From positions 132,256-196,255 of the forward strand of contig JAQTYZ010000002.1 in the NCBI GenBank assembly GCA_028688055.1: DNA of 64,000 bases, in the 5' to 3' direction. Positions 1 to 36,082 of this stretch are shown piece after piece. The translations under genes and the position numbers were made by a program. The notes below the pieces were generated by a model. It had not been told where the DNA came from, searched no databases, and saw nothing but the letters and a program-made list of their open reading frames with translations. Numbering within the stretch: the first letter of the stretch is position 1; every line of letters begins with the position of its first letter. This DNA comes from Patescibacteria group bacterium. GTDB taxonomy: Bacteria; Patescibacteriota; Patescibacteriia; Buchananbacterales; UBA6539.

Positions 1-65
1 GGGGCTAGTCTGGTAAATTATGATGTCCGAAATCAAGCACACGAGACTATAAGGAGAAGAGACGA

Positions 66-251
66 ATGTGCAATTCGAAACGCTGCGACGATTGCCGCGG
101 TGAAGGTGCTCCATGCGTGAAGCCGTCCGAAGAACAATGCGATCATTGTCGATCGCAAAGCAATGAGATTGGCTGGGGCACTTTGGGTATCGTTGCGGCA
201 GCGGCGACAATTTTGGCGTTGCTCATTGTGGCGATCAGCCGTCTGTTCTAG
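66..251 (+). CDS. small Cys-rich protein with C-terminal transmembrane helix (hypothetical)
   Basis: 61-aa ORF with 6 Cys in the N-terminal 30 aa (CDDCRGEGAPC..CDHC) and a hydrophobic tail. AAGGAGA SD 7 nt upstream. Strong hairpin+T-run terminator follows. Lies in a GC-rich segment. Confidence 0.3.
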   Translation: MCNSKRCDDCRGEGAPCVKPSEEQCDHCRSQSNEIGWGTLGIVAAAATILALLIVAISRLF

Positions 252-267
252 GCGGTGGGCGACTTTA

Positions 268-317
268 GCGCGTTCTCGGTGTTTTCCAAAGGGAAGCCGA
301 GAACGCCCTTTTTTTAT
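268..317 (+). terminator. rho-independent terminator (10-bp GC stem + T-run)
   Basis: gcgttctcgg...ccgagaacgc stem followed by TTTTTTTATT. Confidence 0.5.
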
Positions 318-534
318 TCAAAAAACACCTCGAAGGTGTTGTTATTTATCATTAAATTCAGGCCACAATTGATTGACAAAACCACTAAAATAAGCTACCT
401 TTTCAAGTTGCAGAATCAGCGTGATTTTGCGCTCCCGTCACGGCAGGGGAAATACTGCCCAGGTCGCTGCTCTGGCAGGGCCGCAGTTCTTTGAACGGCG
501 CGCGACTTTGGTCGGCGCTATGTAGGAGGTTGTT

Positions 535-1434
535 ATGGATCTCGGGAAGTTAGTTAAAGCTGATTCACACGCTGGGGTGCTGGTACTTAGCCCAGCCCAC
601 AGTAGAGCCATGATCAGATTTATTGGCAGTAGCCTGTCGACATTCTCAGTGCCTAGTGAACGTGAGTGGCGAACAAGTGCCATCCCGTTTGACACCAAGA
701 GTATTGCCGGGCCACTCGTCGATTCAGTTGAGGTTTGTGAGGTGATTGCCTTGGGTGTGGCTGATCATCAGCAGAGTGGGACGTTCATTCTCGTCCCGGT
801 TTATTTCACGAGTCAGCAGTGTTCCGTTAAGCTGGATCGACCGTTTGTACCTCGCTCTGGCTGTTTGGCTGAGATTATCACTGTGGATCCCGAACACGTC
901 AGTCGGTTCGCGCTCTCCTACCTGCGGGTTCAGGTAAGTGGCTCGGAGGAAGAAGCTGACCAGGTCTTTACCACTCAGCCCGATGTCCCCGGCACGTTTT
1001 ACGTGCCCGACAGCAATTTGCTTTGTCGGTTTCTGGTTGGTCGCGCGGAGTTAAGTGAGCTCCAACAGGCCGCGATTGAAACGACGGCCGAAGCTTCGGC
1101 GGCCGAACAACTGCGTCAGTTAGAGCAGTTGTCGAATACACTGGCTGTTTGGCCGAGCGAAAGTGGCGATATGGCCAATCAGGTTGAGGTGTACATTAAT
1201 CAGCTTCAGTCTTCTCTGAGCGGTGCCAACTTTAATGCCAGAATCGCTACCGCACAATTGAAAAATATTCTGGACATGACTTTGCGCATTGAAGACTATG
1301 CTAGGACCAACCTAGCGCCGCCCCGCTGGCGTCTTTTCCGCCGCCTCCGGCATCAAGCCGCGATGATTTCGTGGTTTTTGTCCCACGTCGCTCAAATCAG
1401 GTTTGGCATTGAGGATCTTGACCAGCATCTTTGA
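535..1434 (+). CDS. hypothetical protein (GC-rich island A)
   Basis: 299-aa ORF, ~52% GC against a ~38% background. AGGAGG SD 6 nt upstream. TTGACA-17-TAAAAT promoter at ~373-402 and a structured ~120-nt leader. No recognisable family. Confidence 0.5.
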   Translation: MDLGKLVKADSHAGVLVLSPAHSRAMIRFIGSSLSTFSVPSEREWRTSAIPFDTKSIAGPLVDSVEVCEVIALGVADHQQSGTFILVPVYFTSQQCSVKLDRPFVPRSGCLAEIITVDPEHVSRFALSYLRVQVSGSEEEADQVFTTQPDVPGTFYVPDSNLLCRFLVGRAELSELQQAAIETTAEASAAEQLRQLEQLSNTLAVWPSESGDMANQVEVYINQLQSSLSGANFNARIATAQLKNILDMTLRIEDYARTNLAPPRWRLFRRLRHQAAMISWFLSHVAQIRFGIEDLDQHL

Positions 1435-1456
1435 CAAGATCTCGTAACGACATCGA

Positions 1457-1490
1457 CCGGGAAGCGCCCCTGGCTTCCCGGATTTTTTTT
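1457..1490 (+). terminator. rho-independent terminator
   Basis: ccgggaagc-gcccctg-gcttcccgg hairpin + TTTTTTTT. Confidence 0.55.
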
Positions 1491-1647
1491 ATCAATAATA
1501 TCATCCCTGACATCCCTTCGTTCTGCCGGTGGTTTTTGAGTTGACGCCACGCGCTCGCATTGGTTATGCCGAACTTGCTTGCCCCGCTGTGGCGGTGGTT
1601 TCGACATCCCATAGATTTTTGAAATCCATCCATTTCTTGCTAGATAC

Positions 1648-33479: not shown

Positions 33480-33661
33480 ATCCTAATTATATTATAGTTG
33501 TCAAAGAAAGTAAAATAACAGTGTTGTGGAACAATCCTCTGTTCTACCCTAAACTATAACCACTACATTATTGCAAATACTAAGCGCAAATAGCATATCA
33601 TAATCTTAGTTTTTACCTTAATAATTCTATTTTCTATTTGTTGTCTGCTATTAGCTGGCAT

Positions 33662-33733
33662 TGCCCCCAGTAGGAATCGAACCTACATCACAAGCTTCGG
33701 AAGCTCGCATTCTATCCGTTGAAATATAGGGGC
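33662..33733 (-). tRNA. tRNA-Arg (anticodon CCG)
   Basis: Reverse complement GCCCCTA..CGAGC-TTCCGAA-GCTTG..GTAGG-TTCGATT-CCTAC-TGGGGGC-A. No CCA encoded. Confidence 0.8.
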
Positions 33734-33751
33734 TCGTTTCACTACTGATTT

Positions 33752-33828
33752 TGGTGTCCCAGGCTGGATTCGAACCAGCAACCTACAGCTTAGAAGGCTG
33801 TTGCTCTATCCGGTTGAGCTACTGGGAC
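33752..33828 (-). tRNA. tRNA-Arg (anticodon UCU)
   Basis: Reverse complement GTCCCAGTAGCTCAACCGGATAGAGCA-ACAGC-CTTCTAA-GCTGT..GCTGG-TTCGAAT-CCAGC-CTGGGAC-ACCA. CCA encoded. Confidence 0.85.
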
Positions 33829-33965
33829 CTTGGCGATAATATCTACCTTTAATAACTAAGTTATGTCTTCGGTTGCCTGTCCGTCTGCAGTCACGCGCCG
33901 CGGGACGTCGGTGGAAGTTACTGGGATATAAAACAAAATGATACTAACAAAATTTAAGGTAAAAG

Positions 33966-34886
33966 TCAACTATCTTTTCGTCTTTTTCGCTGATGAAATG
34001 TCTTATAAACTTCGCGCAACTGGTTATTAGTGATGTGAGTGTAAATCTGAGTGGTGGTAATCGACGAATGTCCCAGCATCGTTTGAACTGATCGAATATC
34101 AGCGCCATTAGTCAGTAAATCGGTCGCGAAACTATGGCGCATCGTGTGCGGCGTGACGTGCTTGGTGATGCCGGCGTCGCGCGAATATTTTTTAATCAAG
34201 CGCTGAACACTGCGCGGCGTTAAATTTTTTGGTTCGGTCTTGCCCTTCGCCTTATCGTGGCGAACCAAGAGGTAAGGGGAGAGGTCTTTGCGCCCAGTTA
34301 AATATTGTCTGAGCCAATGTTTGGTTTGGTTGGATAAAAAAACGACTCGTAATTTATCACCTTTGCCGCGAACCGTGAATTCGTCTTTGTCTAAATTAAC
34401 ATTTTCAATTTTGAGATTAGCTAATTCGGAAACCCGCAAGCCGGTTGAAAATAACATTTCCAAAATGGCTTTATCACGCAGCTGAATTATTTTTTTCTCC
34501 TCGGTTTTTAAGGGTGCCTCTAATAATCTTTCTAAATCATTCCCTTCTAAAAAATCAATTTGACGCTCTGGTATTTTTGCCAGTTCAATTTTTTCCGGGG
34601 CCAACGACTTTACATCTTGTTTGGACAAATATTTTAGTAGTGACCTAATCGCGATCAAGTGATAATTTTGCGTTGATTTTTTGAGGCCTCGTCCGTAGTT
34701 GTCGGTTTGGCGATTTAGCCATAGTCGATAGCTTCGAATCAGCTCAGCTGTGATTTGGGCCGGATTACTGACCTTACCCCAATTGCAAAAACGGTTGAGG
34801 TAATAATCGTAGTTTTCAACCGTTTTAATACTGCGTCCTTTTTCGACCTCGAGGTACTCAAGAAATTGTCTGATTAATTTATCCAT
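33966..34886 (-). CDS. tyrosine site-specific recombinase (XerC/XerD-like)
   Basis: 306 aa. N-terminal SAM-like core-binding domain. C-terminal R..HxxR..Y catalytic motifs (HTMRHSFATDLL...LGHSSITTTQIYTHI). Confidence 0.85.
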   Translation of the reverse strand: MDKLIRQFLEYLEVEKGRSIKTVENYDYYLNRFCNWGKVSNPAQITAELIRSYRLWLNRQTDNYGRGLKKSTQNYHLIAIRSLLKYLSKQDVKSLAPEKIELAKIPERQIDFLEGNDLERLLEAPLKTEEKKIIQLRDKAILEMLFSTGLRVSELANLKIENVNLDKDEFTVRGKGDKLRVVFLSNQTKHWLRQYLTGRKDLSPYLLVRHDKAKGKTEPKNLTPRSVQRLIKKYSRDAGITKHVTPHTMRHSFATDLLTNGADIRSVQTMLGHSSITTTQIYTHITNNQLREVYKTFHQRKRRKDS

Positions 34887-35191
34887 CTGGTGTCATTCTG
34901 AATTTAATTCAGAATTTTTGGGCCCCGAAGCAAGTTCGGGGTGAATTTATTATTTATCGTCTATTGATAAATTCATTTTACGACACTTTAATAATTTTGC
35001 CTAGCAGTTAATTCTGTTTAAAATTTCTGCACTTAGATTATATGAACGAACGATAAAATGATTGACCGTCGACATTAAATATGTTATATTATTATATTAT
35101 TGTTTTAGCGTTGATGTTTGAAAATGAAATATCTCGGCCACGGAGAGCAGTGGCAATTTTGGATTTCTGTGAAATGTGAGAGGAAAAGCAC

Positions 35192-35947
35192 ATGATCAGA
35201 GCAGCGGTTGTAGAGGACACGGTTAGACGCTTGTCCAACGAAGTGCCGTTTGACAAAGTGGACGAAGTTTCTGCCACGATCGGAGAGGCACTGCGCAAAC
35301 AGTACCTTGTTTTCACGGTTCCCGACTTGCTGGAGATTACCAAGAGGCATCTTGACATTCTGCGCCAGCGTTTTGACAGTCTCATTGCGGAAGACAAAGC
35401 CACCTGCCGAGGAGGCATTGATTCAATCCTGGCTCGGTTGGAGGCCACGAGAAACATCGCGATTTCTGAAGTCGCCGGTAAACCGATGGTTGGCGTCAAC
35501 CTGCCTTTGCTGCCGGTCATTAGTAGTCGTTTTTTGGCTGCTAGCATCCAGGTCAATATGATAAGTCACGGCAATGATGTGGGTCTCAGTCTGCTTGATG
35601 ATGCTGAGATCTTGGATGAGTTCGTGTCGGAAAATGGTGCCTGGTGGCTCACCAATGTGGAGACTGGCCGCCAATTCAGTGATGGCACATATTCTCAGGA
35701 AGACCAGGAGTCTGTCGTCATAGCGCAGGATCGCAAGGTTATTATGGCGGCTGAAGCCATTGCGTTGGGTGTTCATTTTCCCAAAGTGTTTAAAGCAAAC
35801 AACGTCGTCGCTCTTGGTTCTCGATTAAGGAGCACTATTGGCCAAGCGATCATTTTGGCCAATGAATTGGGTTCATTTAGACTCCGATCCATGCGCATTA
35901 GCGGTGACGCCAAATATGGTGTTGCCTCGTGTAAGAGTCGCATCTAG
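35192..35947 (+). CDS. hypothetical protein (GC-rich island F)
   Basis: 251 aa, ~52% GC. GAGAGGAAAAG SD-like sequence. No recognisable family. Confidence 0.45.
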   Translation: MIRAAVVEDTVRRLSNEVPFDKVDEVSATIGEALRKQYLVFTVPDLLEITKRHLDILRQRFDSLIAEDKATCRGGIDSILARLEATRNIAISEVAGKPMVGVNLPLLPVISSRFLAASIQVNMISHGNDVGLSLLDDAEILDEFVSENGAWWLTNVETGRQFSDGTYSQEDQESVVIAQDRKVIMAAEAIALGVHFPKVFKANNVVALGSRLRSTIGQAIILANELGSFRLRSMRISGDAKYGVASCKSRI

Positions 35948-36082
35948 GGACATAACTCCTTGTTTTTTCTTCATTTTGACCTTTGTCAGTTAGAGGGCAG
36001 ATCGTTATTCGACAGTCTGGCCCTTCTTTTTTTATTGACATTTTTGGCAAATAATGATACTGTCAAGCTGCTAATAATTTAA

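Follow-up and report, generated by a model that had tools for sequence, protein, structure and literature searches.

Short GC-rich genes, each headed by a strong Shine-Dalgarno (SD) sequence, lie scattered among SD-less core genes in a genome of the Patescibacteria (candidate phyla radiation, CPR), which raises the question of where such genes come from and why they differ in how translation starts. Here, we address this question for a stretch of 64,000 nucleotides (the window; positions 132,256 to 196,255 of contig JAQTYZ010000002.1, assembly GCA_028688055.1), which is chromosome of a Buchananbacteria-like metagenome-assembled genome (MAG); its TyrS has relatives at 59-69% identity in organisms that bear the names Candidatus Buchananbacteria or Parcubacteria. 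Our answer, to which we give a probability of about 0.65, is that these islands are unrelated cassettes of the flexible genome, at least eight autonomous units of mixed ages, in a cell with two modes of translation initiation. The island units (numbered as in Table 1) hold 13 genes in approximately 10 kb and lie between conserved operons, usually just after a terminator.

The islands are set apart by base composition. The original prediction, made from the sequence of the window, described seven GC-rich islands in a backbone of about 38% GC. The backbone figure was too low, as the mean GC of the window is 42.0%, or 42.1% outside the claimed islands and a low-GC element of 9.3 kb. Six of the claimed segments are GC-richer than the remaining window (0.421) and than backbone windows of the same length, namely 1-1490 (GC 0.520, z=3.1), 7400-8240 (0.534, z=3.2), 15450-18930 (0.532, z=4.0), 26400-29200 (0.486, z=2.1), 35150-36000 (0.492, z=2.0) and 61764-61980 (0.502, z=1.5). 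The remaining segment, 31200-31900, failed the GC test (41.9%, z=-0.1; its open reading frame (ORF) alone is mildly up at 0.47), though it deviates in tetranucleotides (z=-2.6). The count of seven also needed revision: segment 26400-29200 consists of two units with an AT-rich spacer between them, and the units number at least eight.

At the gene level, the 13 genes in eight short units have a mean GC of 0.528, against 0.423 for backbone genes, and the excess is seen across all three codon positions. GC at third codon positions (GC3) is 0.574 in islands and 0.424 in the backbone (Mann-Whitney p=5.6e-7). Codon usage differs likewise, with island and backbone frequencies of 0.05 and 0.35 for TTA, 0.51 and 0.22 for ATC, and 0.49 and 0.18 for TTC, and island proteins are poorer in Lys and richer in Arg. 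After correction for base composition, the tetranucleotide signature of all islands taken together correlates with that of the backbone at r=0.78, whereas equal-sized backbone subsets reach 0.95 +/- 0.01. Thus, the islands deviate from the backbone in GC, GC3, codon use and oligonucleotide signature, as expected of genomic islands, and the uniform signature that would have spoken against the prediction was not found. Translational selection for C-ending codons was considered as a source of the difference and rejected, since groEL, atp, rpsO and pnp have the GC3 of the backbone.

The second distinction lies in the ribosome binding site. We scored 12 of the 13 island genes and 50 other genes, taking an SD as strong when its duplex with ACCUCCUUU had a dG <= -8 kcal/mol. 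In line with what had been predicted, strong SDs precede 10/12 island genes and 0/50 others (Fisher p=6e-10). The leaders of valS, tyrS and the response regulator, three genes already singled out as lacking SDs, are A/T-rich and SD-less, as are those of the atp genes and groEL; the mean duplex dG of non-island genes is -1.0 kcal/mol, and two core genes, pnp (-7.7) and groES (-7.4), carry moderate AAGGAG sites. Additionally, the start region (-30..+30) has a minimum free energy of -8.7 kcal/mol in islands and -6.1 kcal/mol in the backbone (p=0.02), and GC upstream of the starts is 0.46 versus 0.27. Most genes of the window therefore show what SD-independent initiation calls for, that is, no SD and A/U-rich leaders with little structure. 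The TTGACA-type promoters and strong intrinsic terminators that had been assigned to each island are indeed present, but occur equally at backbone units (9578, 19048, 26376, 13959), and only GC and SD set the islands apart. One such backbone promoter, a perfect sigma-70 consensus (TTGACA-17-TATAAT) at 9578-9606, overlaps the annotated TTG start of a 146-amino-acid (aa) ORF at 9578-10018, the true start of which probably lies further downstream, as called in two contigs described below (L085 and L088).

The same division recurs across the clade. An SD-less core with SD-led, GC-richer accessory genes was found in 8/9 related or Parcubacteria contigs, the ninth (L090) having zero strong-SD genes. 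In seven contigs of relatives (L082, L083, L085, L087, L089, L171 and L175), every strong-SD gene is accessory except atpE of L089, and these genes are generally GC-richer than their SD-less neighbours, with some overlap in L082, L089 and L171. Strong SDs in L082 lead a Na/H exchanger, a 77-aa ORF, a sugar isomerase and a ureidoglycolate-lyase-like gene (GC 0.52-0.59; others 0.33-0.54). In L083 they lead the partner of the isomerase (0.58) and, at the slot of island 2, an ORF of 73 aa (0.46), the other genes lying at 0.34-0.40, and the isomerase itself (GC 0.57) has a weak site only (-5.5). L087 has them on PhoU-like, AIRS_C and DHO_dh genes (0.47-0.52; others 0.37-0.39), while its PHO4 gene (GC 0.50) falls just under the threshold at -7.3. 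Four genes of L089, atpE among them, are strong-SD (0.45-0.53; others 0.30-0.45), and L085, L171 and L175 have one each, the orthologs of islands 2, 5 and 4a (0.47-0.57; others 0.30-0.49). The eighth contig that shows the pattern, L177, is Wolfebacteria-like with 35% GC, and has strong SDs (AGGAGG) only on a DapB_C-like gene and an insertion sequence transposase (rve), at positions 6001-6660 and 9434-10366; the pattern thus extends beyond Buchananbacteria. As the DapB-like homolog of L177 is already host-like in GC, the SD persists independently of GC. Likewise, orthologs of island 2 still have their SDs although the leaders have diverged beyond alignment.

Based on these observations, we propose that the cell would run two translation-initiation modes. 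Core mRNAs would start independently of SDs on unstructured A/U-rich leaders, while GC-richer accessory mRNAs, with more structure around the start, would need pairing between SD and anti-SD. Incoming GC-rich genes would then be expressed and retained only if they carry a strong SD, which would stay under selection. Because structured mRNAs would depend on it, the SD would be retained wherever island genes are found, even past divergence of the untranslated region (UTR).

The islands are also reproduced outside the MAG. Run SRR22315507, as assembled by Logan, yielded two matching contigs: one of 6,309 bp (L001) is identical to window 24836-31144, and the other, of 8,962 bp (L088), matches 5295-14256 with one mismatch. 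These contigs span both borders of islands 2 and 4, and therefore those islands are not chimeras.

Comparison with relatives indicates that the units differ in age. A genus-level relative (run SRR17233806; loci L085 and L175), with TyrS 90% and AtpD 95% identical to those of the window, has islands 2 and 4a in the same flanks and equally GC-rich. Its island 2 ortholog (65% aa identity, GC 0.57, GGAGGG SD) occupies the same slot between response regulator and glycosyltransferase, and its island 4a ortholog shows 94.7% aa identity, a GC of 0.52 and the same SD. In contrast to these shared islands, amt is followed directly by the atp operon in L175, where window 15375-19253 with the whole of island 3 is missing, and the alignment ends at window 27607, so that island 4b is missing as well. 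On this evidence islands 2 and 4a predate the genus-level split, whereas islands 3 and 4b differ between the two genomes. The suggested sister-genome comparison thus gave a divided result, and the predicted character of the islands as foreign autonomous accessory units with gene flux is borne out by the absence of islands 3 and 4b from the relative and by the sharing of island 5 with a distant genome. In the more distant contigs L089 and L090 (TyrS 68%), the order is DHH, ValS, TyrS, response regulator, variable genes, glycosyltransferase and atp operon, L090 being without the glycosyltransferase; relative to both, the interval from glycosyltransferase to atp is longer in the window by 9.6 kb of accessory DNA. 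What follows the response regulator varies, with L082, L083, L089 and L090 each carrying other cargo at this slot. Relatives at <=79% identity in an AtpD genome scan share the atp operon and none of the islands. The 80 loci obtained from metagenomes by way of the czcD-like neighbour showed neither synteny nor island homologs, and gave no lead on islands 4b, 5 and 6.

Movement between genomes is visible from similarity or phylogeny for island 5 and for the isomerase of island 3b, the latter by its non-CPR outgroup. The island 5 cassette, a 728 bp unit of promoter, leader, ORF and terminator, is 87.5% identical in nucleotides and 93% in amino acids to a copy in Buchananbacteria GCA_013359225.1 (L171), against ~72% nucleotide identity in the flanking backbone. 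Its protein has a >90%-identity cluster mate in that assembly, whose XerC and PNPase are 79% and 70% identical to those of the window, and whose TyrS, on a contig taken as belonging to it, is 59% identical. In L171, the cassette stands at the distal end of an AT-rich ~7.2 kb element at tRNA-His, which carries a tyrosine integrase and a large serine recombinase gene overlapping the 3' end of the tRNA. In the window, the cassette is bracketed by copies of a three-copy repeat (D1; copy 1 on the left), made of a pseudo 3' end of tRNA-His and a two-hairpin downstream flank; the last copy overlaps the real tRNA-His 3' end and continues downstream. The repeat folds at -40 kcal/mol (z=-5.9), its second hairpin being a terminator, and the pseudo tRNA end is followed by the tRNA-His flank of the own genome, in the window as in L171. 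One of the two segments between copies carries island 5 and the other tpiA (32010-32849, GC 0.32). This arrangement suggests serial integration events at tRNA-His, and we have softened an earlier reading of the repeats as simple att sites of one element, as tpiA lies between two copies. Taken together, these features of island 5 are direct evidence of element-mediated transfer: distant Buchananbacteria have recently exchanged the cassette, carried by an element that integrates at tRNA-His. As to mobility signatures in general, tRNA-derived direct repeats occur at island 5 only and its recombinases are seen only in L171, while island 1 adjoins tRNA-Val and tRNA-Ile. For the 140-aa protein of island 5, AlphaFold gave no usable model (pLDDT 41.6).

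Island 3b encodes a 476-aa protein of the L-fucose/L-arabinose-isomerase family and a 324-aa, weakly mutarotase-like partner, both with high GC (0.56-0.57) and GC3 (0.66-0.70). Of the 8,000 homologs scored for the isomerase, the closest named ones beyond its small clade belong to Hydrogenedentes, Armatimonadetes and Chloroflexi (53-57% identity), and no donor closer than 57% was found among 5.8 billion proteins. The two best matches (62%, 60%) sit on contigs with the same ValS-TyrS-response regulator backbone, L082 and L083, where the orthologs of the operon are likewise GC-rich and mostly SD-led. The isomerases of the window, L082 and L083 form an exclusive clade in a neighbour-joining tree of the top 120 hits, and their pairwise identities (62, 60 and 69%) parallel those of TyrS (65, 65 and 75%). 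The exclusive clade and the distances tracking TyrS therefore indicate one old non-CPR acquisition followed by long residence, during which the gene could have descended vertically with losses or been passed on early within the clade. When the window is compared with L082 or L083, conserved residues of the isomerase use the same codon at 0.46-0.53, where saturation predicts 0.42-0.45 (TyrS, 0.45 versus 0.43 expected); over the three isomerases the figures are 0.46-0.56 and 0.42-0.48. In the three genomes, however, GC3 is 0.68-0.79 for the isomerase and 0.35-0.55 for TyrS. Given such near-saturation, the GC-richness of the isomerase would be maintained rather than the fading signature of a donor.

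Table 1. Island units and tRNA-His-derived repeats of the window (SD, Shine-Dalgarno sequence; ORF, open reading frame; aa, amino acids; nt, nucleotides).
Feature	Coordinates	Strand	Description
Island 1a	49..315	+	AAGGAG SD; 61-aa ORF 66-251; intrinsic terminator ~270-315; cut by window start
Island 1b	373..1489	+	TTGACA 373-378; GC-rich leader ~130 nt; AGGAGG SD; 299-aa ORFan 535-1434; terminator 1457-1489
Island 2	7401..8198	+	TTGACA 7401-7406; AGGAGGG SD; 210-aa ORFan 7513-8145 (TTG start); terminator 8163-8198
Island 3a	15483..16251	-	two tandem paralogous minigenes, 15534-15770 and 15956-16177
Island 3b	16325..18990	-	operon of isomerase 17449-18879 and partner 16434-17408
Island 4a	26414..27607	+	promoter 26414-26441; AGGAGG SD; 342-aa protein 26516-27544; terminator 27577-27600
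Island 4b	27706..29185	+	two-gene operon; terminator 29155-29185
Island 5 cassette	31187..31914	+	TTGACA 31329-31334; GGAGG SD; 140-aa ORFan 31446-31868; terminator
D1 repeat, copy 1	31115..31253	-	pseudo 3' end of tRNA-His and two-hairpin downstream flank; left bracket of island 5
D1 repeat, further copy	31912-32050		
D1 repeat, further copy	32861-32999		
Island 6	35062..36030	+	promoter 35062-35090; weak GAGAGGAAA SD (-6.0); 251-aa ORF 35192-35947; terminator
Island 7	61720..61990	-	TTGACA 61990-61985; GGAGGG SD; 47-aa ORF 61772-61915; bidirectional terminator 61720-61756

The cargo of the islands is diverse and includes the sugar isomerase with its partner, a carbonic-anhydrase-like protein, a DapB-like reductase, DUF1858-like small proteins, two Cys-rich membrane mini-proteins and ORFans of 299, 210, 205, 140 and 251 aa. 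The mini-proteins of islands 1a and 7 share one architecture: the former has a Cys-rich N-terminus and a C-terminal transmembrane helix (a 60/61-identical copy exists on a JGI contig), and the latter is Cys-rich and tail-anchored by such a helix. The segment of island 7 had been taken for non-coding. It holds the 47-aa ORF with its own promoter (TTGACA-17-TATCAT), SD and terminator, and the ORF is probably unannotated, being absent from the protein collection. The ORFan of island 1b, which lies 200 bp upstream of tRNA-Val and tRNA-Ile genes, has one distant homolog only among 5.8e9 proteins; the other ORFans have no Pfam, NCBIfam, PADLOC or PHROGs match and fall in 90%-identity clusters of one or two members. 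A DUF5701 match of the island 6 ORF remains below the cut-off; this island sits between the xerC/D-like gene (33966-34886) and rpsO, a slot with no gene in L171. PADLOC and PHROGs searches of ten island proteins gave no match, Rfam yielded only tRNAs at the gathering threshold and nothing credible for island leaders at E<=1, and PDB sequence searches found nothing for three island proteins. Viral-contig scans with three island ORFans returned no relative, which is weak evidence as the method needs shared 8-mers.

In island 3a, each minigene has its own TTGACR promoter, AAGGAGG SD and terminator. A DUF1858/ScdA_N match, below the Pfam cut-off, was obtained for 15956-16177 only, and its paralog 15534-15770 is 35% identical (E=2e-9). 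The latter has no cysteine and a 33-nt internal tandem repeat at 15579-15644; the former has three cysteines, a C-x2-C pair plus one more.

The protein of island 4a is a distant relative of the CsoSCA catalytic domain, the PDB sequence search giving a marginal CsoSCA match for this protein only. It forms part of a pair, as two unrelated, putative carbonic-anhydrase-like genes adjoin at 25940-27544, directly after atpC. The Pro_CA_2 gene of the pair is of backbone type (GC 0.37, no SD) and found in relatives, the CsoSCA-like gene has a GC of 0.52 and an AGGAGG SD, and both are kept together in L175. Island 4b consists of a 205-aa ORFan (27794-28411, AGGAGGG SD) and a 232-aa DapB_C-like protein (28421-29119, AAGGAG SD). 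The family of the latter counts 601 representatives (E<=1e-3; best 53% identity), the nearest cluster having a Wolfebacteria member. Exchange within the Patescibacteria would fit the relationships of this gene, and a recent survey reports Patescibacteria-to-Patescibacteria transfer as the dominant mode (PMC12455944).

For island 2, synonymous conservation is 0.60 versus 0.41 expected, while the excess in core genes is 0.07-0.10 and the island 2 protein changes faster; with n=123 sites the excess amounts to only about 2 standard errors. As a minor hint, it could reflect later exchange or selection on synonymous sites.

Several points weigh against our reading of the islands as SD-dependent cassettes of the flexible genome. 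SD-less accessory genes exist too, in the copper and amt block (DsbD_2/HMA, CopA and Amt; 10075-15374 within 9.6-15.4 kb), which has a GC of 0.47-0.48, lacks SDs and is accessory relative to L089 and L090. No 16S 3' end was found in the window or in 176 fetched loci, and CCTCCT is present in only 48% of Parcubacteria 16S sequences (PMC9297842); if the anti-SD were absent, the SDs would be relics and the initiation model would fail. Horizontal transfer is directly shown only for islands 3, 4b and 5, the relatives are contigs of uncultured organisms, and the isomerase tree is a neighbour-joining tree of the top 120 hits. A GC3 that is kept past synonymous saturation is, on these codon comparisons, not what a simple un-ameliorated import would show, and an extra cause would be needed. 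With regard to the anti-SD, the SDs on groES, pnp, the orthologous island genes and atpE of L089 argue indirectly that the ribosome would still read SDs and that the anti-SD would be functional.

The persistence of composition is the main strength of an alternative in which the islands are native, vertically inherited genes whose GC3 and SDs are held by selection or a gene-specific process, such as a special expression class, mRNA stability or GC-biased gene conversion. Isomerase distances that track TyrS, with GC3 at 0.68-0.79 despite near-saturation, would follow naturally, as would islands 2 and 4a conserved in place with unchanged GC in the genus-level relative and SDs kept in orthologs with unalignable UTRs. 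Nevertheless, native inheritance must contend with the presence and absence of islands 3 and 4b against the closest relative, with an island 5 far closer to a distant genome than the backbone is and associated there with a mobile element, with slots of different cargo in four relatives, with the non-CPR outgroup of the isomerase, and with highly expressed core genes (groEL, atp, rpsO) of backbone composition, and we consider it improbable. We hold it still less likely that the islands are recent imports from a GC-richer host of the presumed episymbiont, as the original prediction had allowed; its reading of the islands as foreign DNA is right in kind, but neither a single donor nor a host is supported as their source. 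Their higher GC, donor-like SDs and un-backbone-like codon usage agree with such a source, and the named relatives of the isomerase are indeed free-living phyla of higher GC, but the best match outside the clade reaches 57%, ORF 535-1434 is essentially without homologs and the other ORFans match no family beyond tiny clusters. Furthermore, the relatives of the DapB-like gene include Patescibacteria, the exchange partner of island 5 is another Buchananbacteria, and several islands are older than the genus-level divergence, islands 2 and 4a and the isomerase being long-term residents.

The earlier suggestion of related cassettes, here taken as one mobile family dispersed by a shared mechanism, integron-like or borne by an insertion sequence or a miniature inverted-repeat transposable element, found little in its favour beyond the shared layout of promoter, SD, ORF and terminator, two similar SD contexts (GTAGGAGGTTGTT and GTAGGAGGGTGTT) and the tandem minigenes of island 3a. 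All-vs-all BLASTP of island proteins gave one paralog pair only, and the borders of islands 1b, 2, 3, 4a, 4b and 6 share chance 7-13-mers only; no attC-like, inverted or direct border repeats were seen except at island 5, and imperfect inverted repeats recurring at island borders were not found. The only tyrosine recombinase of the window is a generic Phage_integrase match with a XerC/D-like N-terminus, not IntI, its only companion being the serine recombinase of the low-GC element, and the island units have own promoters, unlike integron cassettes. A common family is thus very hard to sustain. Least probable of all is that foreign GC-rich fragments entered a CPR contig through chimeric assembly or binning; although the source is a MAG with abrupt compositional steps at the unit borders, contigs from an independent pipeline run across both ends of islands 2 and 4 with 0-1 mismatch, islands 2 and 4a recur between the same neighbours in the second sample (SRR17233806), and L082 and L083 show the same mosaic.

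The window carries ~62 genes and five tRNAs, and its core content comprises valS, tyrS and the response regulator; a GT4 glycosyltransferase; copper-handling genes and amt; the F-ATPase operon; a CDF transporter, tpiA and the xerC/D-like gene; rpsO and pnp; a split comM-like gene; and groES/groEL. In the genus-level relative, DinB and an S24-peptidase (UmuD/LexA-like) are inserted between copA and amt (L085 12089-14571), which the window lacks. One of the tRNAs is a tRNA-Ile with anticodon UAU (1806-1882), adjoining tRNA-Val(GAC). A UAU anticodon is seldom used for the codon AUA, which is usually read by a modified tRNA-Ile(CAU).

The strongest compositional anomaly of the window, absent from the original list, is an integrated low-GC element of 9.3 kb (43250-52560; 31.8% GC), with a tetranucleotide correlation to the backbone of r=0.19 and genes of GC 0.314 and GC3 0.283. 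It splits the comM-like Mg-chelatase gene into an N-terminal (42351-43217) and a C-terminal part (52558-53244), the break lying at Pfam Mg_chelatase position ~88-91. A large serine recombinase (50964-52595) stands at its right end, and it also encodes an HTH_17 protein (50132-50491) and a sigma70_r4 protein (45189-46328).

Islands acquired by horizontal transfer are already documented in the CPR, and the islands themselves are thus unsurprising. If confirmed genome-wide, the near-perfect split of SDs between core and accessory genes would provide a simple sequence marker of the flexible genome in Parcubacteria and would bear on the anti-SD loss reported there. Likewise, a GC3 that persists through saturation would, if confirmed, conflict with standard amelioration and need a maintaining force. 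A bolder and, in our view, doubtful reading is that Buchananbacteria-like Parcubacteria stably keep two dialects in one genome, an AT-richer SD-less core and a GC3-rich, SD-dependent accessory pool whose composition does not decay to the equilibrium of the host, even past saturation of synonymous sites. If true, this would imply active maintenance of the composition of the pool, whether by selection linked to SD and mRNA structure, by GC-biased conversion in a recombining pool or by a shared GC-rich mobile reservoir, and it could cast light on how foreign genes fare in a lineage where the anti-SD is being lost.

With regard to known systems, tRNA genes are familiar targets of integrative elements and of tandem island accretion. 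Island 5 is similar in its bracketing by pseudo tRNA-His repeats and in being cargo alongside a serine recombinase in L171, but the window keeps no recombinase there and the bracketed segments are ~0.7-0.9 kb, one with tpiA; the locus is a remnant or tandem array, not an intact element. Integron cassettes resemble the islands as dense, small, unrelated and mostly single-gene accessory units, from which the islands differ by lacking intI, attI and attC, by being dispersed and by having a promoter and terminator each. Bacteroidota initiate translation independently of SDs and have rare SD-led genes. The anti-SD motif has been lost in about half of Parcubacteria (PMC9297842). The window shares with both an SD-less core with A/U-rich leaders and a minority of strong-SD genes, the difference being that this minority here consists largely of GC-rich accessory genes. 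Finally, the survey of Patescibacteria genomic islands (mSystems 2025; PMC12455944) describes horizontally acquired atypical DNA of up to ~13% of genome length in some MAGs, with many of the transfers being old. Compared with those islands, the units here are small (0.3-3.5 kb), mostly single-gene, autonomous and without mobility genes, and stand out in an SD-less core by their SD-dependent starts, while the passages of the survey considered here make no mention of SDs; island 5, the DapB-like gene and the old islands of this window are in turn like the islands described there.

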